This document shows positions 19,993-62,020 of a stretch of 64,000 bases of DNA, one piece after another (within the stretch, counting starts at the first letter, position 1; every line of letters starts with the position of its first letter). The stretch covers positions 601,984 through 665,983 of the forward strand of contig CAZXMM010000001.1 of NCBI GenBank assembly GCA_964641255.1. Direction: 5' to 3'. The notes under the pieces were generated by a model that had not been told where the DNA came from, did no database searches, and saw only the letters and a program-made list of their open reading frames with translations. The translations under genes were made by a program, and so were the position numbers. The DNA comes from an uncultured Gammaproteobacteria bacterium. Lineage in GTDB: Bacteria; Patescibacteriota; Microgenomatia; JAMCZE01.

Positions 19993-20288
19993 TCGTACTC
20001 CTCTAAAATATCCTCCTATGTCCAAATTTTTGATGTTATAAGCTAGACTTGAATAATTATTAGCTACTTTTGACTCCGTAGCTTCAGTTCAAAGGCGGAT
20101 AATGGCTAATATACGACATGGCAAAACTTCAGAGAATGTTAAAATATAGCTAACCGTTCGGAAGAACTTTATTTTATAAATTCAAAAGTTAATTCACCAA
20201 TATAGCTATTAATAAGAAATTACTAAAATTCGGGTTACTGGCGGCAACGACGACATATCTACCCACGCTTGATGCCATTCTTTCCCCT

Positions 20289-21056
20289 TTGATTTCTTCA
20301 CAACCTTTTTGGACTGTTGTTTGGGTTTCCGCCATTGGACTATACAATCTTTATCTTTATGCGGAACAAGACAAATTAAATGAAGTTACGGAGTTTATAT
20401 ACGAAAACCCAGATAAATTTACTAAATCAATTGTAAGTTCAACCTATTTCAGGAGTAACTTTTTAAAGTTTTTAGGAGAATATTTGAAACAGAGTAACAA
20501 GCGAAAAAGAGAAGCATTAAAGAAAATCCTGCTGCAATCATTATCTAAAGAGGAGGACGAAAAGTTTGAGATTGACCGGCTAAATAACGTATTAAGCCAA
20601 ATTTCGCTAGGAGCAATAAGAAATTTGCTTTTTATCAAATCTCATTTCATCCCTCAAATTGAAAAGGAAATAGAATATGAGGTACAAAGTTATGACCATA
20701 AGAACAATCCCAAAGAGATAACAAGGCTTAAAGACATTACAAAAGCTCGAAAAAATATCTCCGACTACATACAACGTTGGATTCATGATAATTTTGATCC
20801 CGATAGTCATATAGTTAAACAGAAGTATCATTATGATGATTCTTGGGATCAGGCACAAAAAATGAAATTTAATACTGACCATTCGATTAAGAAACATACG
20901 ATTGAAAAAGAAATACATTCTTACTGGCCTGAGTACGTAAGTTTAGGAATTATGAGTTCCGTAACCGATGGAGTAGGACAAATGGGAGGGGCTGGCGGTA
21001 CTGTTTATAAGCTGACGCAATTTGGAGAAAGCTTTATTGAATTCATAGAACCTTAG
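20289..21056 (+). CDS. Hypothetical protein (AT-rich, Lys/Glu-rich)
   Basis: ORF track. Confidence 0.4.
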   Translation: MISSQPFWTVVWVSAIGLYNLYLYAEQDKLNEVTEFIYENPDKFTKSIVSSTYFRSNFLKFLGEYLKQSNKRKREALKKILLQSLSKEEDEKFEIDRLNNVLSQISLGAIRNLLFIKSHFIPQIEKEIEYEVQSYDHKNNPKEITRLKDITKARKNISDYIQRWIHDNFDPDSHIVKQKYHYDDSWDQAQKMKFNTDHSIKKHTIEKEIHSYWPEYVSLGIMSSVTDGVGQMGGAGGTVYKLTQFGESFIEFIEP

Positions 21057-21063
21057 TAATGGT

Positions 21064-21175
21064 TGTGCACCATCTGGGACGATGTTCGTACCTACATAAC
21101 CTCCCAGATCGATCCTCTCGAAAAATCAACACTCATCACCGCAATTGCCTACTTCAAACAGAAGGAGGCTAAACT
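21064..21175 (+). repeat. Intergenic module copy U10 (variant 5' box with SD; GTG start)
   Basis: TGTGCACCATCTGGGACGATG ... CCTACTTCAAACAGAAGGAGGCTAAACTGTG. It starts 7 nt after the upstream stop codon. Confidence 0.5.
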
Positions 21176-21676
21176 GTGAACCCACTTAACTTCCTCAAAC
21201 TAGGCCGAAAACAGAACCTACGAGACTCTCAGGGTGCACTAGAGAGTATTTTATACGATGAAACGACCTTTTACCACCGTTTCACTAAAGACTTAGCAAC
21301 AGCCAAAAGTGAAGTTATTATCGAGAGTCCATTCATTACTGTACCGAGACTTAGAGTGCTTAAGCCTTTCTTTGAAAAATTAATAAATAGGCGGGTCAAA
21401 GTCTTCATAATTACCAAAGACCCAAGTGAGCTTGACGAGAACATGAGTATCCAAGCTGAATCTGGCATACAATTTTTTGAGGAGTTAGGTGTGCAAGTGG
21501 TACTTTGTAAAGGTCATCATAGAAAATTAGCCATCATAGATAGAAATGTACTTTGGGAAGGCAGCCTCAACATTTTGTCGCAATCTTGCAGTCGTGAATT
21601 TATGAGAAGGATAAACAGCAAACAATTGGCGGAAGAAACCTTTAAGTTTTTGAAACTCGAAAAGTGCGTCAGTTAG
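21176..21676 (+). CDS. PLD-family nuclease (Nuc-like, single HKD motif)
   Basis: VVLCKGHHRKLAIIDRNVLWEGSLNILS contains an H-x-K-x4-D motif. The size (166 aa) is similar to plasmid Nuc endonucleases. Confidence 0.6.
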   Translation: MNPLNFLKLGRKQNLRDSQGALESILYDETTFYHRFTKDLATAKSEVIIESPFITVPRLRVLKPFFEKLINRRVKVFIITKDPSELDENMSIQAESGIQFFEELGVQVVLCKGHHRKLAIIDRNVLWEGSLNILSQSCSREFMRRINSKQLAEETFKFLKLEKCVS

Positions 21677-21708
21677 TAATGTTATAATTCTGAAAGGAGG
21701 TGTGAATT

Positions 21709-21942
21709 ATGGACTCAAATAACCCAGTCACAGAAAAATCTAGATTGGTCATTCAGGCAATGATATATGCCAACGAGAACAGTCTGAATGTTAACGATCT
21801 TAAAGACGTAAACAAGATTCTTGAAGCGCTTAACGTTCAAGACGAAGATCCTCAGGAATTCATGAATCTTTTACAGCATGCCGAAGATTTTATGGATATG
21901 TCAGCACCAGACGATGGGCACAAAAAGGGCTTAGTTAATTAA
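21709..21942 (+). CDS. Small acidic hypothetical protein
   Basis: ORF with a strong SD (GAAAGGAGGTG) upstream. Confidence 0.35.
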   Translation: MDSNNPVTEKSRLVIQAMIYANENSLNVNDLKDVNKILEALNVQDEDPQEFMNLLQHAEDFMDMSAPDDGHKKGLVN

Positions 21943-23630
21943 AGTTCAATTTTATTGCCAAGAAGATCAGTAATAAAATGCTTAGGCAGCGGTTTTTTAG
22001 GGTATTTTTTAAGAAATTCTTCGTTTTCGCTAACGAGATAAACAGTTTCATAAATTGTTCCGTTTTCTCTATTTAAATCGTGACCTACCAACAAACCTTC
22101 TCGCCTGAGTTTTTTAATCTTTCCAGGATTAATGTCAAAATAATTGTCAGAAGTTAATTGCCAATCTTTTATCCATAAATCATCGTTTTTATCTATTTCA
22201 GCCGGAATAACGCCCTTTTTTATATTCCTCTGGCAGTCTGCACACCGTACACCATCTAAATTCCACCAAGTCTTACTGCTTGGAGTATTTTCTCTGCAGA
22301 TACCACATTGATACACACCATCACTTTCTTCTAAAAAGAATCCGCCAGGTTCCTTTTCTAACCTTCGTTTCCGTGCATTTTGAATTCCGGCAAATTCGCC
22401 GGAGAAATGGGCAAATTGGACAACATTATGTCCTTCATATTTCATTCTCGTGTCATAATCTATTTTTGGCTGTTCCGGTTCTTTTTTCTTGCCTACCAAC
22501 TCAAAGAAGTCTTCCTCATTTTCATAGCCTTTCAGTCGTCCTGAAATATAACCAAGTCGATAGGATAGCCCGTCACTCATCAAGCGCCAATTGGTGCCTT
22601 CCAAGGCTTCTTTTATGATTATTTCAAGTGAAGAAACACTAGCTTCTTGTTTACGCATAGAGTCGTTATCCTGAATACTAAACGGAACAATGAAGTACTT
22701 GCCAATTTCTGGATTATTTAGGGAAAGCTTGACGAAGTGTTTTTCTTTCAATAAAGGATTAAGGAGTTTTTCTAACTCCACTACGGTTAATTTTTTAAGT
22801 TGGATAATTTGTTGGTAAGCTTGGCTATCATATTTTTTGAATTCTTCGTTGTACACCACTTTAGCAACCTTTGAAGCTTCTACATAGTCAAAAGCCTCTT
22901 TCCCGTTTTCCTCCGAACAGAACTGTTCACGGTACGTGAGCAACAACTTTTTATCCTGTTCCTCTTGTTCCTTCCACTTACTCCGTCGTTTTCCTAAATC
23001 ATCAGTAGTGATTTCAGAAAAGTCACAAAACGGACAAGTCGTTTTATAAATAATTTTGTCCTTAGATTCTTTAATAACGCTCAATTTAATCTTGTGATTG
23101 CATTTGGGACACAACTGAGGCTTTGACTCGCGTTCCGATCCATCTTCGTAGATCCATTTCTTTTGCCTGCACAGAGTACATTCAAAAAGAAACATCATCC
23201 GCATAGGATCGTCGAGTGTTTCGAGATGCTTAAGTGTGCTTTGCATGGATTTATTACAATTAGTGCAAAGAATATTTTTAGGTAGAGAGGTAGTTTCATA
23301 TTTTTCCTGTTTTACACTATCATCGCTAGTCCATTTGTTGATTGTTTCCTCCTTTTGCTCATACCTGCAAGCTTTGGCAAGAAAGAGATATTGATTTGTC
23401 ATCCAATTAGTTCCCTTAGCTTTATCTGTCAACGAAAATTTCTTAGCTTCCTCCTTATTACCCATCTCAACGTAAACTTTAGTACAAAAATCAATAACCT
23501 CAAGACATTCCTTGATTGTCAAAAGATCGTAGCGATCAATATAGTGCTGTTTATCTTTTAAATAGTTCATGCTAGTTATTAATTTTATTTTCATATTCAA
23601 TTTCATTTCCTCCGTAATTAATTTCCTCAA
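21939..23630 (-). CDS. Zinc-ribbon-rich protein (six CxxC pairs), function unknown. The likely true start is 23570 (MNYLKD).
   Basis: CTNCNKS, CTLCRQKK, CPKCNHK, CPFCDFS, CGICREN, CADCQRN. AT-rich. Immediately downstream of the XRE regulator. Confidence 0.5.
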   Translation of the reverse strand: MRKLITEEMKLNMKIKLITSMNYLKDKQHYIDRYDLLTIKECLEVIDFCTKVYVEMGNKEEAKKFSLTDKAKGTNWMTNQYLFLAKACRYEQKEETINKWTSDDSVKQEKYETTSLPKNILCTNCNKSMQSTLKHLETLDDPMRMMFLFECTLCRQKKWIYEDGSERESKPQLCPKCNHKIKLSVIKESKDKIIYKTTCPFCDFSEITTDDLGKRRSKWKEQEEQDKKLLLTYREQFCSEENGKEAFDYVEASKVAKVVYNEEFKKYDSQAYQQIIQLKKLTVVELEKLLNPLLKEKHFVKLSLNNPEIGKYFIVPFSIQDNDSMRKQEASVSSLEIIIKEALEGTNWRLMSDGLSYRLGYISGRLKGYENEEDFFELVGKKKEPEQPKIDYDTRMKYEGHNVVQFAHFSGEFAGIQNARKRRLEKEPGGFFLEESDGVYQCGICRENTPSSKTWWNLDGVRCADCQRNIKKGVIPAEIDKNDDLWIKDWQLTSDNYFDINPGKIKKLRREGLLVGHDLNRENGTIYETVYLVSENEEFLKKYPKKPLPKHFITDLLGNKIEL

Positions 23631-23898
23631 GAAATGCAGCCAATTCGAGGTCTGTGTTAAATATTTCCTTCCAAGGCACCCTCAACGAGTGCCTAATCCC
23701 ACAAAGGGTGTCCATATGCATGTTTCCAGTTTTTCCGCTCTCAAGTCTGCCATAATAGTTAGGATTTAAATCAGCCCCAATTGCTACATCCAATCTTGAC
23801 CGTTCTTGCGCCATCCGAATTTCTCGGATTCTTCGACAAAGGCGATTATGCAATTTGATATCTTTAAAGTTTCTTCTATGTTGATATTTTACTGTCAT
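23572..23898 (-). CDS. XRE-family HTH transcriptional regulator
   Basis: LCRRIREIRMAQERSRLDVAIGADLNPNYYGRLESGK resembles HTH_XRE. Confidence 0.45.
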   Translation of the reverse strand: MTVKYQHRRNFKDIKLHNRLCRRIREIRMAQERSRLDVAIGADLNPNYYGRLESGKTGNMHMDTLCGIRHSLRVPWKEIFNTDLELAAFLEEINYGGNEIEYENKINN

Positions 23899-24048
23899 TT
23901 CGGGATATTACAGAAGTTTAATAAAAAATGTCGTACTTTTATGGATAGTTTATTTATCACTTTCCCTTACAGGGTTGTCCATTATTCTTAATAAATAAAA
24001 CTACTACTTTATGTAGTAGGTCTTAACTGATAAGCTAGTCTTTAGTTT

Positions 24049-24996: not shown

Positions 24997-25146
24997 ATGA
25001 AAGCTAAAGATCCAGTTTGCGGCATGGAGGTGGACTCAAGCCAGGCTAAATTTAAAAGCGTTTACAAAGACAAGGAATATTATTTCTGCTCAGAGGACTG
25101 CAAGAAAAAGTTTGACGAAAATCCACAGCAATTTGCCAAGGATTAG
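24997..25146 (+). CDS. YHS-domain small metal-binding protein (49 aa), not in the ORF track
   Basis: MKAKDPVCGMEVDSSQAKFKSVYKDKEYYFCSEDCKKKFDENPQQFAKD. DPVCGM...YYFCS...C is the YHS signature. SD AAGGTG lies 7 nt upstream. Confidence 0.5.
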   Translation: MKAKDPVCGMEVDSSQAKFKSVYKDKEYYFCSEDCKKKFDENPQQFAKD

Positions 25147-25194: not shown

Positions 25195-26358
25195 TTGATG
25201 TGGAAAAAATTGTTTTTAACCATTATTCTTTCTTTGGTTGCCGCCCTCACGCTGGCACCCTCTATTAACGCTGCCTCTTCTGAAGACTTGCAAAAACAAA
25301 TTAATGAGCTTCAGGGAAAGATTGCTGGGGCTCAAAGTCAGGAGAAAACCCTTTCTTCACAGCTATCATTGATCACGAATGAAATCACTCTAACCGAATT
25401 AAAAATAACGCAAACCGAAGATAAATTGAAGCGATTGACTGGAGACATTGATTCCGTCTCGGGGAAAATTGACGTCATAGAAAATTCCCTAAGTCGTGTT
25501 TCTTCTGTTCTTGTTAATCGCATTGCTCAAACCTACATTGCTGGCCGAACTGACCCAACTTTATATTTATTATCTTCGAACAACTTTGACGACCTTCTTC
25601 AACGTTTCGAATACCTGCGCATTGTTCAAAAACATGACAAGACTTTGATGTTCCAAATGGCGGCAACAAAGAAAAACTACAACGATCAGAAAAGTCTGCT
25701 TGAAGATAGAAAAAAACAAGTGGAAACCTTAACCGTCCAACTTAAAACCTATCAAGCACAGCTGGATAGCCAGAGCGAAGAGAAACAAACGCTTCTAGAA
25801 GTTACTAGAAATGATGAAAAGCGTTATCAACAACTTCTAGCACAGGCGCAGGCAGAACTTAATGCTATTGGTGCCTCGCAATTTTCAGGTAAACGAGAAG
25901 TCAAAAAGGGTGACGTCATCGGCCTTATGGGAAGTAGTGGTTATTCAACTGGGCCTCATCTACATTTTGGAGTTTATGATTTGAAAGAAAGTGACGCCGC
26001 AAATTTTTCCTATGCCAACGGGACGAGTGATCCGCTTAATTATTTAAGGGGGAGGGGTTTGACTGTTGATTCTGGAGCTTGCAACGACAAATCCGGAAAC
26101 TTAAATGTTGGCAATGGGGGGTGGGATTGGCCTATGGAAAATCCTAATATCTCTCAGTGTTTTGGCTCCACTCCTTATTCATTTGTTTACACTAATGGTC
26201 GCCATGATGGCCTAGACATGTATGATTCAAACAACGTTGCCGTTCGCTCTATTGATGATGGAATAGCTTATTTTTACCGTGGCAATAGCAGTTTAGGAAA
26301 CAATGTTCGGGTATTTCATTCAAACGGAAGGATGACTCTTTATTTACATCTTCAATAA
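25195..26358 (+). CDS. Secreted coiled-coil M23-family peptidase with the two catalytic motifs in reversed order
   Basis: Signal peptide and long coiled coil. The GSSGYSTGPHLHFGV motif precedes the GRHDGLDM...TLYLHLQ motif. The ORF stops after the YxHL motif. Confidence 0.5.
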   Translation: MMWKKLFLTIILSLVAALTLAPSINAASSEDLQKQINELQGKIAGAQSQEKTLSSQLSLITNEITLTELKITQTEDKLKRLTGDIDSVSGKIDVIENSLSRVSSVLVNRIAQTYIAGRTDPTLYLLSSNNFDDLLQRFEYLRIVQKHDKTLMFQMAATKKNYNDQKSLLEDRKKQVETLTVQLKTYQAQLDSQSEEKQTLLEVTRNDEKRYQQLLAQAQAELNAIGASQFSGKREVKKGDVIGLMGSSGYSTGPHLHFGVYDLKESDAANFSYANGTSDPLNYLRGRGLTVDSGACNDKSGNLNVGNGGWDWPMENPNISQCFGSTPYSFVYTNGRHDGLDMYDSNNVAVRSIDDGIAYFYRGNSSLGNNVRVFHSNGRMTLYLHLQ

Positions 26359-26392: not shown

Positions 26393-26677
26393 ATGTTATC
26401 AAAAGAGAGGGGGTGGAATTTAATGAATAGTTTAGTAAAAAAGACCGTAATAAGTATCACATCTGGGGCTCTTTTTTTAGGGGTTTTTGTGTCACCGGCT
26501 TTTGCAAATTCTACAGTGACCATCACTAGTAATGGAAACACAACAATCACTACTGGTGACTCAAAGTCAAGTGTGTCAATAAGTAATTCTGGAGGCACAA
26601 ATATTTTCAACTCAGGGAAATGCACTGGTCGCTCAGTGTCATTTAGTATTGTAAATGGAGTAGTTAGCTCACACTAA
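26393..26677 (+). CDS. Small secreted Ser/Thr-rich protein
   Basis: Signal peptide, then TVTITSNGNTTITTGDSKSSVSISNSGGTNIF. Confidence 0.3.
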   Translation: MLSKERGWNLMNSLVKKTVISITSGALFLGVFVSPAFANSTVTITSNGNTTITTGDSKSSVSISNSGGTNIFNSGKCTGRSVSFSIVNGVVSSH

Positions 26678-26684
26678 TTGTGAG

Positions 26685-28892
26685 TTAGATTTTTAACAAG
26701 CTTTTTTCGGTGCGCTTGAGGAGTACTGCGTTCACTGCGACAATAATTGATGAAGCAGACATTAAAAGTGCTGCAAACTCAGGCCGCAGGGTGATTCCAA
26801 ACTTTGGATACAAAACTCCAGCAGCAATTGGAATGGCCAGAAGATTATAAACACTAGCCCAGGCTAGATTTTCTTTCATTTTTCGCACCGTGGCTTTTGA
26901 CAAACGGATTGCACGTAAGACATCTGCCGGGTCTGATCGCATCAGAACTACTTTAGCTGTTTCAATAGCCACATCGGTCCCGGCACCAATGGCAATGCCA
27001 ATATCTGCTTGGGCGAGTGCTGGAGCATCGTTGACGCCGTCACCAACCATGTCGACAAATTTGCCTTCATCTTGGAGCTTTTTAACATATTTTTCCTTAT
27101 CCTCTGGCAGAACCTCCGCAAAAACTCTTTCGATGCCGAGGCTTTTTGCCACACCATCTGCTGTCATTTTATTATCTCCCGTGATCATTGCCACTTCCAG
27201 GCCTAACTCTTTCATTTTGGTTACTGCGTCTTTAGCGTTTTCTTTTATGGGATCTTGGGCAGCGGCTACACCCGCCACTTTTCCATCGACTGATAAAACC
27301 ATAATGGTTTTTCCTTCAGACAAAAGCCGGTCAATATCCTTACTTAGGGCTGTAGTGTCTACATTCCTATCAGCCATGAGCTTTAAAGTGCCGACCAAAA
27401 TCTTTTTACTATCAACAATGGCCTCGACCCCATGACCAGATATTGAGTTGAACTTTTCGACCTTTTCAGAAATCATTAGTTTTCTTCTTTGTGCTTCTTC
27501 CAGAACAGCTTTACTTAAAGGATGCCCTGATTTTGCTTCCACAGCAGCATCAAGTTTTATAATGTCATTTTCAGTAAATCCTGTAGCTGCCACCACGTCG
27601 GTAATTTTTGGTTTCCCCTCTGTTAGGGTCCCAGTTTTGTCCATGACAACTGCTTGAATCTTTGAAACAGCTTCAAGTGTCGGTGCGTCCTTAATAAGAA
27701 TGTTGTGTTTTGCTCCTAGGCCTGTTCCCACAGCCACGGCAGTGGGAGTTGCTAGTCCCAAAGCATCGGGACAAGCAATAACTACAGTCGAAATTGCAAA
27801 ACTTAGGGCGAGAAGGAGCGGCTGACCCAGGATAAAAAACCAGACGACAAAGGTAATTAGACCTCCGCCGACAGCGACAATTACCAGATATTTAGCAAAT
27901 CGATCGGCAATTTTTTGCCCGGGAGCCTTGGAGCTTTGAGCCAGCTCAACCATTTTGACGATTTGAGCTAGAGCGGTATCCTCTCCCACTTTTGTGGCCT
28001 TAAATTGAACTGAACCAGAAGTGTTGATTGAGCCGCCGATAACCATATCACCAACTTTTTTGGAAACCGGGAGAGACTCTCCTGTCACCAAGGATTCGTC
28101 AATTGCTGTTTCTCCTTGTACAATTTCACCATCCACGGGAACTTTGTCACCAGGTTTAAGGATTAAAATATCGCCCAGCTTTACTTCTGAAGTCGGGATT
28201 AGTTCTTCTTTCCCATTTCGTAATATTCTGGCTTGCGGTGGAACTAAATTAAAGAGCGCTTGTAAGGCATCAGTTGTTCCACGCCTGGACTTCATCTCCA
28301 TCCAATGGCCAAAGAGAACAAAGGTAATAAGAAGTGCCGCGGCTTCGTAATAGGAGTCCCCACTGCCAAGAAAGGTAAGAAGAACACTAAAGCTATAGGC
28401 AGCAGTTATTCCAACAGCAATTAAAACTGCCATGTTAAGGGTTTTTGCTTGCAGGGCTTTATAGGTAGAATAAAGGAAAATCCAGCCGGAATAAAAAAAT
28501 ACTGGCGTAGTTAAGAAAAAGAGCAGCCAAGGCACGGGGATCGGTGAGGGCAAAGAAATCTTTAAAAATTGAGTTGCCAGGGGGGAATAAAGAATTATTG
28601 GGATTGAAAAGAAGAGAGAAAAGAAGAATTTATTGCGAATATCCTCTTCCATAAGTGCGGCCATCTCTCGACCAGCCAGGCCAGTGTGCTCCATCCCCAT
28701 ACTCATTGTCATGCTCATTTTGAATTTGTCCCACCTAGACATTTCGGAAACCGCCTTCATTGTGTGTTCTTTGTGCCCATCGTGATCCATTTTCATTTCT
28801 TTGAGAATTAATTTCATGCCACACTTTGGGCAGGTTCCAGGATCACTTTGTTGGACTTCCGGATGCATCGGGCAGGTGTAGATTTGCTTCAT
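26685..28892 (-). CDS. P1B-type copper ATPase (CopB/CopA-like) with N-terminal YTCPMHPEV...CPKCGM metal-binding domain, His/Met-rich stretch, and a CPD motif in place of CPC
   Basis: DKTGTLT, TGDN, GDGVNDAP, YN and MSASS TM motifs. VIACPDALGLATP in TM6. Confidence 0.8.
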   Translation of the reverse strand: MKQIYTCPMHPEVQQSDPGTCPKCGMKLILKEMKMDHDGHKEHTMKAVSEMSRWDKFKMSMTMSMGMEHTGLAGREMAALMEEDIRNKFFFSLFFSIPIILYSPLATQFLKISLPSPIPVPWLLFFLTTPVFFYSGWIFLYSTYKALQAKTLNMAVLIAVGITAAYSFSVLLTFLGSGDSYYEAAALLITFVLFGHWMEMKSRRGTTDALQALFNLVPPQARILRNGKEELIPTSEVKLGDILILKPGDKVPVDGEIVQGETAIDESLVTGESLPVSKKVGDMVIGGSINTSGSVQFKATKVGEDTALAQIVKMVELAQSSKAPGQKIADRFAKYLVIVAVGGGLITFVVWFFILGQPLLLALSFAISTVVIACPDALGLATPTAVAVGTGLGAKHNILIKDAPTLEAVSKIQAVVMDKTGTLTEGKPKITDVVAATGFTENDIIKLDAAVEAKSGHPLSKAVLEEAQRRKLMISEKVEKFNSISGHGVEAIVDSKKILVGTLKLMADRNVDTTALSKDIDRLLSEGKTIMVLSVDGKVAGVAAAQDPIKENAKDAVTKMKELGLEVAMITGDNKMTADGVAKSLGIERVFAEVLPEDKEKYVKKLQDEGKFVDMVGDGVNDAPALAQADIGIAIGAGTDVAIETAKVVLMRSDPADVLRAIRLSKATVRKMKENLAWASVYNLLAIPIAAGVLYPKFGITLRPEFAALLMSASSIIVAVNAVLLKRTEKSLLKI

Positions 28893-36088: not shown

Positions 36089-38863
36089 CTATTTGGCCAT
36101 ACCAGAACTAACCCGAGCAAATTCAATAAACAGAAGGGTAAAGGCAACTATCATTCCAATTGGTGCATAGGTAGACAAGTAATTCTTTTTGCCTGGACTA
36201 TATTTGCGAAGCAGGAGAGAATTACCAACTACAGAAATGGAACTTAGGGCCATAGCTAGACCCGCCAGTTCCGGCTTAAGAATTAAGCCTAGTCCAATAA
36301 ACACTCGGGCTGCAACAGGAATGCCGATAACATTATAGAAAAGGGCAAAGAACATATTTTGTTTAATTTTGCCCATCGTATCTTTAGAAAGATCAATTGC
36401 ATTTACCACATCTCTTAGATCATTTTTTATAATCACAATTCCGCCAGTTTCCATTGCCACATCAGTCCCAGATCCCATCGCAATTCCCAGTTCCGCTTGC
36501 GCAAGCGCCGGGGCGTCGTTGATTCCATCTCCCACCATGGCCACCTTCTTGCCCGATTCTTGAAGTTTTTTAACCTCATTTGCCTTGTCCTGGGGAAGAA
36601 CCTCAGCCAAAATATTAGTTATCCCCACTTGCGAAGCGATGGCTTTGGCAGTTCGAGTATTGTCTCCAGTAATCATCCAGACATCAATTCCACGCTTCTT
36701 AAGCGCTTCTACAGCCTCCCGGGATGTGTCTTTAACTGTGTCTGCAACTGCCACGGCTCCTAGAATTTCTTTACTGGTAGCCAAAATCATGGCTGTTTTT
36801 CCTTGTTCCTCAAGGCGTTCAATTTTTCGTTCAATGCGATCAAGCGGAAGTTTGACTACATCAGAAATGAGTTTACGATTGCCAAAAAAGTAGGTCGTCT
36901 TGCCAATTTTCGCTTGTACTCCGTGGCCAGGAATGGCTTTAAAGTCGTCAACCTCATCAAGTTTTATGCCTTCCTCTTCGGCATATTTGCAGATGGCCTC
37001 GGCCAGGGGATGTTCAGATTTCTTATCAATACTGGCAGCAATTTTTAACACCTCGTCTTCATCAATTGGTCCAAAGTCCTCCACATCAGTTACTTCCGGC
37101 TTGCCTTTGGTCAGAGTTCCAGTTTTATCAAAAACAATTGCATTAACTTTGCAAGCAGCCTCCAGTGGCTCGCCACCCTTAACTAAAATTCCATGCTCAG
37201 CTCCTTTTCCGGTTCCCACCATAATAGCAGTGGGAGTGGCCAGTCCCAGGGCGCAAGGGCAAGCAATCACAATAACGGCAGTGAAGGCCATTAAGGCAAA
37301 GGAGAGTGGAGCACTCAACACAAAGAACCAAACAATAAAGGTCAAGGCAGCTACCCCAATTACAGCCGGAACGAAATAAGCGGAAATGCGGTCAGCAAAA
37401 GCTTGGATTGGAGCCTTAGACCCTTGGGCGTCTTCAACCAGTCTGATTATCTGTGAAAGTGTTGTTTCTGCTCCAAGTCTAGTGGGACGAAATTCAAAGC
37501 TGCCGGTTTTATTAATGGTGCCACCAATAACTGAGTCCTCTTCATGTTTTTCCACCGGCAAACTTTCGCCAGTAATCATTGATTCGTCAATTGCTGATGA
37601 GCCTTTGAGAATTATGCCGTCAACCGGAACTTTCTCACCCGGTCTAACGACCACTACATCGTCTTTTGTCACTTGATCAACCGGGATGTCAAGAGTTTGG
37701 CCATCTCTAATAACTCTGGCTGTTTTAGCCTGGAGTCCCATTAGCTTTTTAATCGCGTCTGAGGTTCTTCCTTTGGCTTTGGCTTCAAGCAGTTTTCCCA
37801 AGATGACAAAAGTAATTAGAAAGGCAGCGGTTTCGAAATATAACTCAGGAATCTTCATCCCATTTAGTCCAATAAACGAGCTGTTAATTGCAACATAACG
37901 AAGATAGCTAATCAGGCTATAGAAAAATGCCACAGAGGTGCCAATAGCAATCAATGAATCCATGTTAAACGTTCTCATTCGCAGTGCTGACCACATGCCT
38001 TTATAGAACCTGGAGCCCAGAACAAATTGAATCGGGGTGGCCAAAAGTAGAGAGACGATGCCAATGTAGGGAAGCAACAGTTTCGCTCCCGGTAGGAAGC
38101 CAAAAAAATCCAGAAGCATAAAGTAAAGCATCGGAGCTGAGAGGACAAGACCAGCTATAAAGTTGGTAAATTGTGTTTTGATTTCGGCTTGTTGTCTTTG
38201 AGTGTCAGACGCGGTATTTTTGGCGTCAACCAATTGGGCTTTGTATCCAGCCTTTACAACAGCTTGGGTTAAGTCGTCTACTTTTGCTGGACCTTCAAAA
38301 ACGACACTAGCTTTTTCCGCGGCAAAATTAACTCTCGCTTCCTTAACTCCAGCAACTTTTTTTAAGGATCTTTCGATAAGTGCCGCGCAGGAAGAACAAT
38401 GCATTCCATAAAGTGAGAGATTAACTTTTTGCACTCCTTGTGGAACAAGCATATTTTCCGGTTGTAGTGTTTCTTCTGTCGCTATTTCTTTTTCACTGCT
38501 CTGATCAGCCACTTTCAGTCTTCCTTTGAAAACAAGTTGTCCGTTATCATCTTTACCAAGCTTCCCTTCAAACTCCAGTTCTTTAGGCAGAATTAGTTGT
38601 ACTTGCTGCGGGAACGTCGCAATTTCTTCGACTCTTTTGTGGCCGCCAGTATTTAATATTTCCCCTTTGTAGCCAGCTCTTTCGATGGCAGCCAAAACTC
38701 CGGCGGTGTCCGCATTACCATTTACAAACTTCACCGTTCCTAGCCCTGATTTGTGATCGACCTGAATGTCAGAAATCCCTTGAAGTGCCAGAATTTCTTC
38801 TTTGACCAGCATTTCGCATGATTCACAGTGCATTCCAGAAACTTGAAAATCGAGTTTAGTCAT
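36089..38863 (-). CDS. copA: Cu(I)-translocating P1B-1 ATPase with two N-terminal HMA domains
   Basis: GMHCESCEM and [13 protein letters not shown] motifs. [27 protein letters not shown] and MALSS. Confidence 0.9.
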
Positions 38864-57737: not shown

Positions 57738-57923
57738 ATGTTAACGCCAGAATTATTAGAGGAATTTAAGAGACTATACCAAAAGAAATACAATATTAGT
57801 CTTTCTGATGAAGAAAACACTCGACTGGCAACAGACTTTCTAAATTTAATGAAAGTTTTATTAAGGCCGAAGCCAAAAAAAGCCGAGAGTAATGAAAGTT
57901 ATCAATCGGCAAGCCAAATATGA
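57738..57923 (+). CDS. Small protein upstream of and overlapping (ATGA) the recombinase; possible directionality factor or regulator
   Basis: ORF track. 4-nt overlap with the recombinase start. Confidence 0.25.
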   Translation: MLTPELLEEFKRLYQKKYNISLSDEENTRLATDFLNLMKVLLRPKPKKAESNESYQSASQI

Positions 57924-59662
57924 GATTAAACGAATATACAAACGTGCAATCGTCTGTTCAACAATTACCTACCGTTCCCAGATATATCATGTACTGCCGA
58001 AAAAGCAGTGAGTCTGACGAGCGACAAATCCAGTCTTTACCCGACCAAATCACAAGTTTGACAAATCTTGTCAAAGGGCAAGGAATGAACCTGGTGGGAG
58101 AAGCCTTACAAGAATCCAGAACAGCCAAAATTCCAGGCAGACCAGTATTTGAACAGCTAATCCAAATGATAGAAAACGGCAAAGCAAACAGCATCGTACT
58201 CCTTAACCCCTCACGTCTTTCTCGAAACACAGTAGATACTGGAAGAGTAATTTATATGATGGATCAGGGAAAGCTTCTTGAAGTGATGACGCCTTATCAA
58301 ACATTTAAAAACAATCCTAATGATAAATTCATGCTCAATTTGCTATGTAGTCAAGCTAAGTTAGAAAACGACAATAAAAGCGTTAACATAAAAGAATCGC
58401 TGAAGCTTAAATCAGAACGCGGCATTTTCCCTGGTAAGGCTAGACCCGGTTATAAAAATAATCACGAAAAACCTCAAGGGCTAAGAGACATTTCTGCTCA
58501 TTCAGTTTATTTTCCGTTAATGAGGAAACTCTTCGACTTAGCCTTAACTGGAAACTACAGTGTTGAAAAACTGGTTGTTGAATCTGAAAAGCTGGGAATA
58601 CGAAGTTCCAAAAGTGGAAAGACTATTTGTAAAAGTTGGATGCACCGAATTCTCAGAGACCCCTTCTACACAGGGCGGTTTATTTACAACGGAAAGATAT
58701 TTAAAGGACAGCATCCGGCCATAATTAGCGATGAAGAGTTTAACCTCTTGCAAGATATTTTAGACGGAAGGACAAAACCAAGACAATACCGACACGACTT
58801 TGCTTTAAATGGAATTATTAAATGTGGAAGCTGCGGTTATTGCGTAACAGCTGAAGAACATACCAAGAGATATAAAAATGGCAAATGTCAGGTTTTTGCC
58901 TATTATCACTGCACTAAAAAAGGCAGCGACAAATGTGACCAACCCTATGTACGTACTTCCAAGTTAGAAGTACAGTTTGCTTCTGAGTTAACTCAATTAG
59001 AGTTAGATAAAGATTCTCTTGGATGGGCATATAAAGCTTTAGATCTTGTAAAAGAGAAAGACAGCGTAGTAACCAAAGATAGTTCTGAAGCTATCAAAAT
59101 TACTTTAGACGGAGTCAATAAACGAATTGATAATTTATTAGCTCTTAAAATCTCTCCGGTCAATTCTGACGGCAGCTTACTGTCTGATAGCGAATTCTCT
59201 GATAGGAAAAGAAAACTAATGGAAGAAAAAGACCAAATAATTCAGCAACTTTCACAAGTTAATTCCAATAATAATGAATGGATTGATTTGGCAGATGGCA
59301 GTTTTGAGTTTGGTCGATTAGCTTATGACAGGTTTATAAACGGGGACTCAGAGGATAAGAAAGTCATTTTTAAGACAATCGGCTCGAACCAAATCTTAAT
59401 AGATCAAAAATTGCAATTTCAGCTTCGAAAACTATTTCTCTATTATAAAAGGGGCGCAAATGGGGGAGGAGAGAAGAAAGACCCGCTCGTACCTAAAGAC
59501 GGACTGTTAAATCAATCTAATCTCAATTTTTCTGAAAAAAGTTCTCTATGGTGCGGACGAGAGGAGTTGAACCTCCACACCCTTGCGGGCACCAGCACCT
59601 CAAGCTGGCGTGTATACCATTTCACCACGTCCGCTGATTTTTTACAGAATCTTGTGCCGTGA
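57920..59662 (+). CDS. Large serine recombinase (resolvase catalytic domain + recombinase domain + zinc ribbon)
   Basis: YCRKSSESDERQIQSLPDQ catalytic Ser region. CGSCGYC...C zinc ribbon. The 3' end reads antisense through tRNA-Leu(GAG). Confidence 0.8.
   Translation: MRLNEYTNVQSSVQQLPTVPRYIMYCRKSSESDERQIQSLPDQITSLTNLVKGQGMNLVGEALQESRTAKIPGRPVFEQLIQMIENGKANSIVLLNPSRLSRNTVDTGRVIYMMDQGKLLEVMTPYQTFKNNPNDKFMLNLLCSQAKLENDNKSVNIKESLKLKSERGIFPGKARPGYKNNHEKPQGLRDISAHSVYFPLMRKLFDLALTGNYSVEKLVVESEKLGIRSSKSGKTICKSWMHRILRDPFYTGRFIYNGKIFKGQHPAIISDEEFNLLQDILDGRTKPRQYRHDFALNGIIKCGSCGYCVTAEEHTKRYKNGKCQVFAYYHCTKKGSDKCDQPYVRTSKLEVQFASELTQLELDKDSLGWAYKALDLVKEKDSVVTKDSSEAIKITLDGVNKRIDNLLALKISPVNSDGSLLSDSEFSDRKRKLMEEKDQIIQQLSQVNSNNNEWIDLADGSFEFGRLAYDRFINGDSEDKKVIFKTIGSNQILIDQKLQFQLRKLFLYYKRGANGGGEKKDPLVPKDGLLNQSNLNFSEKSSLWCGREELNLHTLAGTSTSSWRVYHFTTSADFLQNLVP
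59549..59634 (-). tRNA. tRNA-Leu (anticodon GAG), CCA encoded
   Basis: GCGGACG...CCAGC-TTGAGGT-GCTGG, long variable arm, GGAGG-TTCAACT-CCTCT, CGTCCGC-A-CCA. Confidence 0.8.
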
Positions 59663-59741
59663 GGGAGAGTTGAACTCCCACTCCTTGTTTAAGGGAACAG
59701 GCTTCTGAGGCCTGCGTGTCTGCCAGTTCCACCATCACGGC
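59655..59741 (-). tRNA. tRNA-Leu (anticodon CAG)
   Basis: GCCGTGA...CAGGC-CTCAGAA-GCCTG, long variable arm, GGGAG-TTCAACT-CTCCC, TCACGGC-A. Confidence 0.8.
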
Positions 59742-59769
59742 ATTCTGGTTGACCAGCTTACCTATTTTG

Positions 59770-59842
59770 TGCCGAGGTACAGAATCGAACTGTAATCTGA
59801 TGCTCTTCAGGCACCCGCCGTGACCAACTTGGCTACCTCGGC
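59770..59842 (-). tRNA. tRNA-Phe (anticodon GAA)
   Basis: GCCGAGG...GGTGC-CTGAAGA-GCATC-AGAT-TACAG-TTCGATT-CTGTA-CCTCGGC-A. Confidence 0.7.
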
Positions 59843-59863
59843 TTAAATAAAAACTACTTTGGG

Positions 59864-59934
59864 AGCGGGATACCAGAATCGAACTGGTGCTCACACTTTG
59901 GAAAAGTGTTGTTCTACCATTGAACTAATCCCGC
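59864..59934 (-). tRNA. tRNA-Gly (anticodon UCC)
   Basis: GCGGGAT-TA-GTTC-AATGGTA-GAAC-A-ACACT-TTTCCAA-AGTGT-GAGC-ACCAG-TTCGATT-CTGGT-ATCCCGC-T. Confidence 0.8.
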
Positions 59935-59993
59935 TTTCGCTGCGCTTCGGCGGGCAAGCCCGCTTCATCAGCGTTGTTTATTATATATTATTG

Positions 59994-60065
59994 TCGGGGT
60001 GAGAGGAATTGAACCTCCTGCTTCTCGGTCCCAAACCGAGCGTTCTACCGATGAACTACACCCCG
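59994..60065 (-). tRNA. tRNA-Pro (anticodon UGG)
   Basis: CGGGGTG-TA-GTTC-ATCGGTA-GAAC-G-CTCGG-TTTGGGA-CCGAG-AAGCA-GGAGG-TTCAATT-CCTCT-CACCCCG-A. C1:G72 and A73 are typical of tRNA-Pro. Confidence 0.8.
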
Positions 60066-60076
60066 AAACCTCTTAG

Positions 60077-60158
60077 TGCCGAGGATGGGAGTCGAACCCA
60101 TATCCCTTGAGAGGACACGATTTTAAGTCGTGCGTGTATACCATTCCACCACCCCGGC
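60077..60158 (-). tRNA. tRNA-Leu (anticodon UAA)
   Basis: GCCGGGG...CACGA-CTTAAAA-TCGTG, long variable arm, ATGGG-TTCGACT-CCCAT, CCTCGGC-A. Confidence 0.75.
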
Positions 60159-60394
60159 TAGCTATGCTTAGTCCTTACGAATAGTGACGGCTTTTATTTC
60201 CAGTTCGTTGTCCTTATCAACCATCTCCTCGAGCATCTCAAGAAGCTTTTGAATTTTGTCTTCAGGACCAACGAACTCCATGATGAGTCGTTGCAAATCA
60301 TCGGCCATATGTAAAATTCCTTTCTCTGTAATTTTAGCATGCCTAAAGCCAAAGTACGATAAGAACTACCAAAGGGGGGGTCTTTTCTATATAA

Positions 60395-62020
60395 TTACGT
60401 CAGCTGCGGGCGTTGTATACCGGTAATACGTCTCCTTGCCAAGGAGAAGACAGAGGGTTCGATTCCCTTCGCCCGCTCCATATCGGACTGCATTTGCAAA
60501 AATGCCTTTTTAGACCGATCTATAGAGCTATTTTCAGGTTCGAGCCACTCATTTTTCCGAATTACGCTTTTTTCAGTCTCTTTTATGTACACAAATGCGT
60601 TTTTGGCGTTGATTCGGACTATTCTGTCTTTCAACTCCAGGTTCGAGCCGAGAATCCTCAGTACCATTCTTTTGGCTTCCGTGTCGTAAGAATGGAAGAT
60701 TTTAGTGACGTTGGATAGAAATGCTAACACCTCTTCCATCACCTCAGTCCAGTTAGTTAAACCGTCGCTGGCAATGTTATCCTTTGTCTGTTTTTCTTCA
60801 ACCAAAAGACGACTTTTTTCCTTTTTATACTCATCATCGCTAATTAAACCTTCAATCTTCATTCCATAAAGGTTTTTCTTCTCAACTAAAATAGCGTCAA
60901 GGCGTTTGGTCAGTTTACTTTTCTGTCCGCGCTCGAATTCAAATTCCCTCTCGTTTCTTCTTCTGAGGTTTTTCCTGACCCAGGTCACAAACGTAGGTCT
61001 TATTTCCAAACTGTTGATAAACTCAGTTACCTGTTTCTCAACTTCAATTGCATTAAGGTATGGCTGACTACATGGTCCTTTTTTCTTAACACACCTGGCA
61101 TAGATGAAAGTCTGAGAGTTGCCGTTTTTATATTCCTTAGTTTTGCGGTCACAGGTAATTGCAGAGCCGCACTCCCCGCACTTGAGTGTTTTCATGAAGT
61201 AAAAGTCATTTGTAAATTGGTGTATCTTGGCTCTGCCATCAATGGTGTCCTGAACCCGATAATATTCATCAAGTGTTACCATTGGTGTGTGTTTTCCGTT
61301 AAATCGTTCTCCTACGTAGTCAAATAATCCGGCGTAGAAGATATTTCTAAAAAACCGGAAAGCTTCGGTTCTGCTTACCGGTTTGCCTGTTCTCTTGCTT
61401 TTTAGTCCCAAGGCAGTAATTTTCTGCAGAGAACTCTCGACAGTTTCATTGCCTGTCAGCATTAACTCCCACCACGACCGACACAGGTTAAACCGTTCCG
61501 GATCAGGAAGAACTTCCTTTTGCCCCTTCGGCTTTATGGGATCGTTAACATAACCTAATGGTGCTGAACCTGGCCTCCACCCGTTTTGAACTTTTGTATT
61601 CATTCCACGCTTAACATTATCGGAAAGATCTTTGCTAAATTTAGTTGCCATGCCGAACTCAATAAATAGAAAGGTTGAGTTATTTCGGTCGTAGTCCATT
61701 GTCGGTGTAACAATCTGCATTCCGTTATAGTCGACATGATCAATGAGGGTTCCGCCTTCTTTGGCATTCCGGCATAAACGGTCAGCCTTCCAGCAAATTA
61801 TATGGTTGGCTTCACCCTGAGATATCCTGGCAAGCATCTGCTTAAACTCCGGTCTCTTGTCCGGTCGTTTGGCTGATTTGCTCTCTCTATACACGCCAAT
61901 AACAGCGAAGCCTTTGTCCGCCGCTAGTTCGCTACAAATTTTTTCCTGATCATCAAGAGAGAGAATTTGGCGGTCTTTATCCTCGGAAGATTTTCTACAG
62001 TATATAAAACAAGTATTCAT
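60395..62020 (-). CDS. Large serine recombinase, paralogue of 57920..59662. Its 3' end reads antisense through tRNA-Gly(GCC).
   Basis: FIYCRKSSEDKDRQILSLDDQ. Zinc ribbon KCGECGSAITCD. Coiled-coil C-terminus. Confidence 0.8.
   Translation of the reverse strand: MNTCFIYCRKSSEDKDRQILSLDDQEKICSELAADKGFAVIGVYRESKSAKRPDKRPEFKQMLARISQGEANHIICWKADRLCRNAKEGGTLIDHVDYNGMQIVTPTMDYDRNNSTFLFIEFGMATKFSKDLSDNVKRGMNTKVQNGWRPGSAPLGYVNDPIKPKGQKEVLPDPERFNLCRSWWELMLTGNETVESSLQKITALGLKSKRTGKPVSRTEAFRFFRNIFYAGLFDYVGERFNGKHTPMVTLDEYYRVQDTIDGRAKIHQFTNDFYFMKTLKCGECGSAITCDRKTKEYKNGNSQTFIYARCVKKKGPCSQPYLNAIEVEKQVTEFINSLEIRPTFVTWVRKNLRRRNEREFEFERGQKSKLTKRLDAILVEKKNLYGMKIEGLISDDEYKKEKSRLLVEEKQTKDNIASDGLTNWTEVMEEVLAFLSNVTKIFHSYDTEAKRMVLRILGSNLELKDRIVRINAKNAFVYIKETEKSVIRKNEWLEPENSSIDRSKKAFLQMQSDMERAKGIEPSVFSLARRRITGIQRPQLT
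60406..60480 (+). tRNA. tRNA-Gly (anticodon GCC), CCA encoded
   Basis: GCGGGCG-TT-GTAT-ACCGGTA-ATAC-G-TCTCC-TTGCCAA-GGAGA-AGACA-GAGGG-TTCGATT-CCCTT-CGCCCGC-T-CCA. Confidence 0.85.

Follow-up and report, generated by a model that had tools for sequence, protein, structure and literature searches.

The M23/LytM family (PF01551, MEROPS M23) includes lysostaphin, LytM, NMB0315/Mpg and ShyA, which share the motifs HxxxD, YxHL, G-x-G-STGPHLHF and DPxxYL. EnvC of E. coli, V. cholerae and P. aeruginosa combines a signal peptide and a long antiparallel coiled coil with a LytM-type domain, which is in canonical order, degenerate and amidase-activating and is preceded by a "restraining arm" (PMC11627006). 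EnvC, PcsB and RipC attach to FtsEX by their coiled coils, and the hydrolase or activator stays autoinhibited until freed by ATP-driven movement (PMC11627006). Natural permutation of a cell-wall peptidase domain has a precedent in the circularly permuted NlpC/P60 domains (YaeF/poxvirus G6R, LRAT-like; Anantharaman and Aravind 2003), for which the passage of PMC6403190 that cites this work gives a swapped order of the catalytic residues; these domains have an unrelated papain-like fold and other chemistry. A paper on the barrel-sandwich hybrid ("HABAS") lists M23 among its folds and reports circular-permutation variants in the superfold, none of them given for M23 (PMC11515920). Here we describe a gene at positions 25195-26358 of a 64,000-nucleotide stretch of DNA (contig CAZXMM010000001.1, assembly GCA_964641255.1), referred to below as the window, whose product carries the M23 motifs with the two halves of the domain swapped and the termini in the loop after YxHL. 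Circular permutation had been one of three readings offered in a preliminary description made from the sequence alone. This reading is now supported by a contiguous M23 match after de-permutation, by the motif order and C-terminus conserved in the listed homologues, and by a compact predicted domain; the coiled coil, the link to FtsEX and the mobile-island context were missing from the earlier interpretation.

The open reading frame (ORF) opens with TTG at 25195, and the next codon is ATG (25198), which is the more likely start; it gives 386 amino acids (aa), the length of the closest homologues. The order along the ORF is a signal peptide, a long helical region, FSGKREVKKGDVIGLMGSSGYSTGPHLHFGVYD with H255 and H257, SDPLNYL, a Cys-bearing stretch, GGWDWPMENPNISQCFGSTPYSFVYTNGRHDGLDM with H337 and D341, GRMTLYLHLQ with H385, and the stop. 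The motif GSSGYSTGPHLHFGV occupies aa 246-260 and contains HxH, the third zinc ligand and a catalytic His, in the G-x-G-STGPHLHF context (H255-L-H257 in GPHLHF; H255 at nucleotides (nt) 25957-25959, H257 at nt 25963-25965). GRHDGLDM follows at aa 335-342 with the HxxxD zinc-ligand motif (H337-D-G-L-D341; H337 at nt 26203-26205), and RMTLYLHLQ at aa 379-387 holds the catalytic His of YxHL (Y383-L-H385-L). The TAA stop at 26356-26358 lies one residue beyond YLHL, so the preliminary description was right that the ORF ends directly behind this motif. It was also right about the reversed order, which both the sequence and Pfam give as HxH, then HxxxD, then YxHL. The reversed order is real and far beyond chance.

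The Pfam Peptidase_M23 profile scored 57.9 bits on the full protein (cut-off 28.7, E 1.2e-15), an above-cut-off score as in canonical members, summed over two stretches, the best of which placed aa 232-262 on profile positions 59-89 of 96. In the NCBIfam DipM model, the N-terminal part of the LytM domain aligned to aa 299-386. The native protein does not show the canonical contiguous order, and contiguity appeared only after in-silico re-joining, in which aa 296-387 were placed ahead of aa 226-295. The de-permuted sequence matched the Pfam profile in a single stretch (positions 2-89 of 96, 71.3 bits), whereas the same residues in native order gave two out-of-order stretches and 60.8 bits. The de-permuted sequence also aligned end to end with solved domains in the PDB, contiguously across the junction; for example, 6muk_A was matched with E 3.8e-17 over residues 3-126, and further M23 matches were 3slu, TagE, ShyA, DipM, lysostaphin, LytM and EnvC. 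A two-residue gap sufficed at the junction between YLHLQ and GASQFSGKREVKKGD in these alignments, and therefore the new termini are placed in the loop right after the YxHL strand. Each M23 half occurs once, re-joining the halves restores collinearity with the parent family, and no remnant of a second C-terminal half was found in any frame downstream of the stop. Judged from the alignments, the old termini (DPxxYL and WPxxxxISQ) are bridged by a conserved Cys-bearing connector of ~43 aa.

The preliminary description had asked for homologues with the same permutation, and these were found in number. A search of 5.8 billion proteins gave 1578 matches, and the best 120 were listed and inspected. 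These were 38-75% identical to the query, and nearly all were 355-431 aa long and covered most or all of it, P0055 being a fragment of 237 aa. An exact-sequence look-up showed the window protein itself to be absent from the collection. The C-terminus is Y-[LWMA]-H-[LMVF]-[QRK] (YLHLQ or YWHLQ type) in all of the 120, and HxH lies upstream of HxxxD wherever the search patterns matched both. Every one of the 161 full-length permuted members has H255, H257, H337, D341 and H385, and the window copy retains all family-invariant residues. In addition, 80 loci from GTDB species representatives were typed with small hidden Markov models (HMMs), one each for coil, C-half and N-half. Loci L001-L014 read coil, C-half, N-half, stop, with L012 ending at a contig edge before the N-half, and L015-L080 are in canonical order. 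At L009 (5971-7234) a frameshift between C-half and N-half divides the permuted gene into two ORFs that overlap; this is either a sequencing error or a true pseudogene. Lastly, a profile of the permuted domain was compared with 1.84 billion cluster representatives (50% identity). The best 150 matches comprised 51 proteins of the order coil-C-N, eight C-N proteins with no coil match, 34 canonical coil-N-C proteins and 32 tandem N-C-N-C proteins.

Record names place the permuted form in the ultra-small bacteria of the Candidate Phyla Radiation (CPR)/Patescibacteria (Gottesmanbacteria, Collierbacteria, Dojkabacteria, "Patescibacteria group"), and several automatic record labels, such as "uncultured Gammaproteobacteria", are evidently unreliable. 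Canonical-order relatives occur in CPR as well (Kerfeld-, Colwell- and Moranbacteria, Paceibacteria and records labelled Saccharibacteria) and, outside CPR, in Clostridia and Bacilli. Public annotations of the relatives read "peptidoglycan DD-metalloendopeptidase family protein" or "CwlO-like" (JGI). Five Firmicutes loci (L022, L030, L031, L032 and L041; Oscillospiraceae, Faecousia and one labelled Clostridiales) carry two adjacent canonical coiled-coil M23 genes, and these pairs lie downstream of ftsEX in four of the five, L022 having no ftsX match.

AlphaFold2 (AF2) modelled the full-length protein from a 70-sequence alignment with a mean pLDDT of 87.5 and a pTM of 0.54. The model has a helix at aa 3-19 in the signal peptide region, helices at aa 29-48, 53-117 and 131-227, and then directly a beta domain at aa 229-386. 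The domain alone (aa 222-387, 25 sequences) reached a pLDDT of 90.5 and a pTM of 0.88 with the connector as a beta-hairpin. Structure prediction of the two halves, also proposed in the preliminary description, thus gave a single domain, and the permuted domain is predicted to be one compact unit. Collinearity after re-joining, the invariant catalytic residues and the confidence of the model together point to a probable LytM fold with new connectivity. An order-dependent Foldseek search of the permuted domain against the PDB retrieved no chain. Two coil-less architectures were met in the family: in P0129 (254 aa) a Pro/Thr linker connects a signal peptide to the permuted domain, and P0151 (1118 aa) has the permuted domain at its extreme C-terminus. 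The occurrence of the domain in these settings argues for an autonomous folding unit. P0129 ends in YWQLQ, with Gln for the YxHL His, and is possibly inactive, judging from this residue.

The overall layout is that of an exported protein in which a long N-terminal antiparallel coiled coil is followed by a hydrolase-type domain. The top PDB matches of the full model in Foldseek were EnvC (6tpi_A, the best, and 8tzl_E) and RipC (8idc_E); the RipC coil superposes on the window model with a root-mean-square deviation of 2.8 A over 154 columns. The coil (aa 30-218) also gave a weak match to Pfam CC_PcsB and a match to the NCBIfam EnvC model. By analogy with these proteins, the coiled coil is presumed to dock on the extracellular domains of FtsX. 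The permuted protein differs from EnvC in its domain order, in its intact catalytic residues and in a spacer of only ~4 aa between coil and domain. PcsB, CwlO and RipC, which are under FtsEX control in Gram-positives and mycobacteria, carry a directly catalytic hydrolase on an FtsX-binding coiled coil, as the permuted protein presumably does; theirs are CHAP or NlpC/P60 cysteine peptidase domains and not M23. The nearest relatives are the canonical coiled-coil M23 proteins of other CPR and Firmicutes (L015-L080), which have a homologous coil (coil HMM E 1e-10 to 1e-23) and share the TQxYGxTxYS-type signature of the N-half. They differ in that the N-half comes first, after a ~32-aa spacer behind the coil, and is followed, behind the C-half, by a ~31-aa tail.

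Two further structural observations were made. In the Neisseria M23 proteins (6muk_A, 3slu_A) the domain upstream of LytM aligns weakly with the permuted C-half (LKEGDAVRLLYDSLYFHG versus VKKGDVIGLMGSSGYSTG), which makes the native permuted order (window aa 217-386) collinear with their "domain 2 + N-half". This alignment may reflect a GD-box-like repeat or chance. A match of aa 233-320 to PDB 9k2v_E ("Internal protein"), which seemed collinear with the permuted order, was dropped, as a connector-only query was unmatched.

The permuted and canonical coiled-coil proteins differ in the lengths of all three joining segments. The spacer from the coil to the first domain element has a median of 4 aa in 161 permuted proteins and 32 aa in 29 canonical ones. 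In the same sets the gap between the halves has a median of 43 aa versus 7 aa, and the tail behind the last half 0 aa versus 31 aa. The connector of the permuted family contains a conserved Cys, C296, in SCDD-like motifs, and C322 lies in the TQCYG strand. Both cysteines are present in 109 of the 161 proteins and neither in 27, while 25 have C296 but lack C322, and no protein has C322 without C296; two or four cysteines occur in the domain of 155 of the 161. Because C296 covaries with C322, we infer a disulfide that would staple the connector to the first strand of the N-half.

Classically, a circular permutation arises when a domain is duplicated in tandem and the first N-half and last C-half are then lost. 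The preliminary description had listed such a duplication as a competing explanation. It is better regarded as a plausible route to the permutation than as its rival, and it lacks a coil-bearing intermediate. Tandem M23-M23 proteins, for example BlaR1-M56 followed by two M23 domains, or CHAP and a lysozyme-like domain followed by two M23 domains, account for the 32 noted above, and no coil-bearing tandem or half-way form (coil with tandem M23, or N-C-N) was found among the best 150 representatives. One protein considered as an "N-C-N" intermediate (P0247) was rejected as an ordinary tandem with a weak last half. The ~43-aa connector fits an "old C-terminal tail + part of old spacer", and the duplication-deletion route is plausible from these sequence comparisons. 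A neighbour-joining tree of the coil, N-half and C-half in de-permuted order (100 bootstrap replicates) placed all permuted sequences except P0232 on one side of a single branch, with one sequence misplaced per replicate on average. P0232 is, like L013, a divergent permuted form, and the connector is very short in both. A single origin of the permuted form is likely on the evidence of this tree.

Adjacency to ftsEX is typical of Gram-positive coiled-coil hydrolases and is not universal among them. In four contigs with close homologues (P0002, P0003, P0005 and P0008, 64-75% identical), the permuted gene lies directly behind ftsE (ABC_tran) and ftsX (FtsX_ECD + FtsX) in all four. The arrangement there is DsbA, release factor, small ORF, ftsE, ftsX and hydrolase, with a PAP2 gene ahead of it in three of the four. 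With tblastn, ftsE-ftsX was found immediately upstream in 13 of 14 permuted GTDB loci, which brings the related permuted loci with this arrangement to 17 of 18, and most canonical coil-M23 loci of Firmicutes likewise lie downstream of ftsEX. Given this adjacency and, by analogy, the published FtsEX system, the permuted family most likely serves these CPR bacteria as their FtsEX-controlled cell-wall hydrolase.

Taken together, we are fairly confident that the gene encodes a secreted M23/LytM peptidoglycan metallo-endopeptidase of the FtsEX type with a permuted domain, and that it is probably active. As in lysostaphin and LytM, H337, D341 and H257 would be the zinc ligands and H385 and H255 the catalytic residues; the enzyme is most likely active because all five zinc-binding or water-activating residues are present. 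The chain would enter the fold at the strand that normally follows YxHL and then pass HxH and the DPxxYL element of the old C-terminus. The ~43-aa connector, probably a disulfide-stapled beta-hairpin, would lead into the old N-terminus (WPxxxxISQxFG), from which the chain would proceed via HxxxD and terminate one residue past YxHL. The domain would be carried by the EnvC/RipC-like coiled coil, with the family gene as the third of an ftsE-ftsX-hydrolase unit, and the ATP cycle of FtsE would be relayed by FtsX and the coiled coil, switching on the hydrolase for splitting of the septal wall. The permutation does away with the ~30-aa spacer between coil and domain found in canonical relatives, and the last coil helix is fused straight to the strand leading into HxH; we infer that this fusion may have a regulatory consequence. 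Several points count against this interpretation or parts of it. First, catalytic activity is predicted from the residues for every member. Secondly, no ftsE-ftsX pair adjoins the window copy within the 64 kb, and tblastn of the window with FtsE, FtsX and the release factor (prf) of a homologous locus gave nothing, so that FtsEX control of the window copy is an extrapolation. Third, the divergent member P0232 falls outside the permuted group, and a single origin is not certain.

Features of the permuted M23 gene and its surroundings in the window (aa, amino acids).
Feature	Position	Strand	Basis or remark
563-aa protein, rich in CxxC pairs	21939-23630	-	no Pfam match
108-aa ORF	23572-23898	-	no Pfam match
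YHS-domain protein, 49 aa, copper-related, upstream neighbour	24997-25146	+	context only
Complete ORF: signal peptide, coiled coil, circularly permuted M23	25195-26358	+	387 aa from TTG
Sec-type signal peptide, aa 1-26, without lipobox cysteine; presumptive cleavage between MMWKKLFLTIILSLVAALTLAPSINA and A	25195-25272	+	sequence reading
Long antiparallel coiled coil, EnvC/RipC/PcsB type	25279-25875	+	AF2, Foldseek, weak HMM matches
C-terminal half of canonical M23, here first (aa 228-264)	25876-25986	+	VKKGDVIG strand and GSSGYSTGPHLHF with H255, H257
Connector between old C- and N-termini (aa 265-307)	25987-26115	+	old C-terminal DPxxYL and predicted beta-hairpin with conserved C296, D298
N-terminal half of canonical M23, here last (aa 308-387)	26116-26355	+	WDWPM lead, H337xxxD341, Y383-L-H385-L, ends one residue later
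94-aa secreted Ser/Thr/Asn-rich protein	26393-26677	+	no Pfam match
735-aa ORF, convergent downstream neighbour (putative copper-type P-type ATPase)	26685-28892	-	naming from translation motifs only
Second P-type ATPase, E1-E2_ATPase and HMA	36089-38863		library scan
Short canonical-order M23, 206 aa	46575-47195	-	Pfam 99.1 bits, profile positions 3-96 of 96
Large serine recombinase	57920-59662	+	
Large serine recombinase	60395-62020	-	

The window copy lies in different surroundings. Directly downstream of it comes the small Ser/Thr/Asn-rich gene, behind which there is a terminator-like hairpin (26664-26688); this gene and the permuted M23 gene may share a transcript. The convergent 735-aa ORF is a putative copper-type P-type ATPase by its N-terminal CPxC-type metal-binding motif, ACPDALGLATP, DKTGT and GDGVNDAP. 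Farther downstream are a two-component system, DsbD-like proteins, the second HMA/P-type ATPase, an HMA-DsbD-cupredoxin protein, a multicopper oxidase and DsbA. These are followed by a BlaR1/M56 protein, the short canonical M23, a VirB4/TraG-like ATPase and a type IV secretion pilin, and then by AbiEii, a Replic_Relax protein and a coupling protein. The short M23 lies between the genes for the BlaR1/M56 protein and the VirB4-like ATPase and plausibly opens the wall for the conjugation apparatus. The two serine recombinases flank seven tRNA genes (59552-60477), one call of which (60406-60477, +) overlaps the 3' end of the second recombinase ORF; the region 57920-62020 may be an integration site or island boundary. 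At the opposite side, the G+C content (GC) is 0.363 in the two 2-kb bins of 20001-24000, with a strong negative GC skew in the second, and this low-GC region may be the other edge of the island. The stretch 24997-62020 resembles a genomic island or integrative conjugative element that carries copper-resistance genes as cargo. Since the window copy is without ftsEX and lies inside this copper-resistance, island-like region, it has probably been relocated there or represents an additional copy of the permuted M23 gene.

These surroundings supply the alternative that survives best, namely that the window copy is FtsEX-independent island cargo, acting as a lytic or antagonistic enzyme against the host or a neighbouring cell or as a conjugation wall-opener. 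It is favoured by the absence of ftsEX from the 64 kb, by the position of the gene between the YHS gene and the putative copper ATPase inside the copper-resistance cluster, by the type IV secretion genes, relaxase-like gene and recombinases beside the tRNA cluster that follow, and by the fall in GC at 20-24 kb. However, the window copy has its coiled coil complete and shares 70-75% identity with orthologues linked to ftsEX, the island already has another M23, short and canonical, beside the VirB4-like ATPase, and FtsEX could act in trans. On this balance we consider cargo status unlikely, at something like one chance against several.

Less support remains for an inactive LytM-type regulator, like EnvC, NlpD or DipM, which would activate another hydrolase such as an amidase. 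The whole-protein structural matches to EnvC complexes would suit such a role, as would the coil-less P0129 with its Gln for the YxHL histidine, and EnvC itself is a coiled coil plus LytM under FtsEX control (PMC11627006). EnvC and DipM, however, are without zinc ligands (PMC11627006), whereas the five catalytic residues of the permuted family, the signature of active M23 enzymes, show no exception in its full-length members, which makes a regulator role distinctly improbable.

It is more improbable still that the halves complement each other between chains in domain-swapped dimers formed via the long coiled coil. PcsB crystallises as an inter-locked dimer (PMC11627006), and the full-length model has the lower pTM given above, but the monomeric domain model is confident and compact, the connector is conserved and, at a median of 43 aa, long enough, and the domain also occurs in the coil-less P0129 and P0151.

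Finally, an assembly rearrangement or a decaying pseudogene, in which the reversed order would be an artefact of the contig or of a broken gene, deserves hardly any weight: the window copy does lie outside the usual ftsEX context and the related locus L009 is frameshift-split, but the same order, length and C-terminus recur in every listed homologue from independent assemblies and sources, the ORF is uninterrupted with its family-invariant residues intact, no lost half remains downstream of the stop, and the conservation of the layout in more than 160 full-length homologues with invariant catalytic residues excludes both assembly error and pseudogene, the former of which the preliminary description had entertained as a reading and the latter as a possible refutation.

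A further lead came from phage virion proteins. The only order-dependent structural matches over the whole permuted domain were three of these proteins in BFVD (E 5e-3 to 0.4, TMq 0.40-0.46), namely A0A510E7V3 (E 5e-3, TMq 0.46), H6WFX6 of cyanophage S-TIM5 and L0CQF1 of Synechococcus phage P60. The P60 protein, gp33, is encoded at locus L085 (NC_003390, 22777-25779) and is a cyanopodovirus internal virion protein; 19 homologues (P0270-P0288) were found, of which 16 were aligned. The C-terminus of the gp33 family reads GYGSTGPHLDVK, then HxGxD/GxD, then FxFxHG 3-5 residues ahead of the stop. Pfam M23 matched 12 of 17 members weakly and below the cut-off (E 0.0015-0.05); when eight members were scanned singly, six matched, with the last ~49 residues on M23 profile positions 2-51. 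When the profiles of the CPR and phage families were compared with each other, the alignment was limited to the GSTGPHL motif (probability 23%). The gp33 family differs from the CPR domain in that the second His of HxH is Asp and the HxxxD His is often missing, and its N-terminal partners are SLT or glucosaminidase domains and not a coiled coil. No match was found by tblastn of the permuted domain against the phage collection (E 1e-5), and none for the P60 gp33 C-terminus against the PDB. On this weak evidence, phage ejection proteins may hold a second M23-like family that is permuted and degenerate.

A bolder, joint proposal is that the permutation is functional, with movement of the coil by FtsEX gating the catalytic sheet, and that the internal virion proteins with which cyanophages pierce the cell wall may share its topology. 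The lost spacer would then be the counterpart of the EnvC restraining arm, and coil movement driven by FtsEX would act on the catalytic sheet itself. We consider this combination quite unlikely. If true, it would be a novel gating mechanism for a hydrolase under FtsEX control, and the phage part would mean a widespread, overlooked topological class of M23 that is invisible to order-dependent searches.

No description of a permuted M23/LytM domain was found in open-access full texts and bioRxiv, where NlpC/P60 was the one cell-wall peptidase superfamily discussed as permuted (PMC6403190), and an earlier mention elsewhere is possible. A conserved natural circular permutation of M23/LytM is thus apparently new, whereas the enzyme family and the FtsEX setting were already known; the finding is a permutation with possible mechanistic consequences and not a new kind of system. 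Standard tools see the permuted M23 domain as fragments, with two partial Pfam matches and an empty Foldseek search of the PDB. Such fragmentary matches can lead to permuted M23 genes being taken for truncated genes or pseudogenes. Lysostaphin and other M23 enzymes are under development as antibacterial enzymes, and the natural permutant reveals where an M23 chain can be opened and its termini moved for fusions. Cell division in CPR/Patescibacteria is poorly understood. The permuted family is apparently the FtsEX-partnered wall hydrolase of a large group of these bacteria, and its altered attachment of coil to domain is a natural experiment on force transmission by FtsEX.

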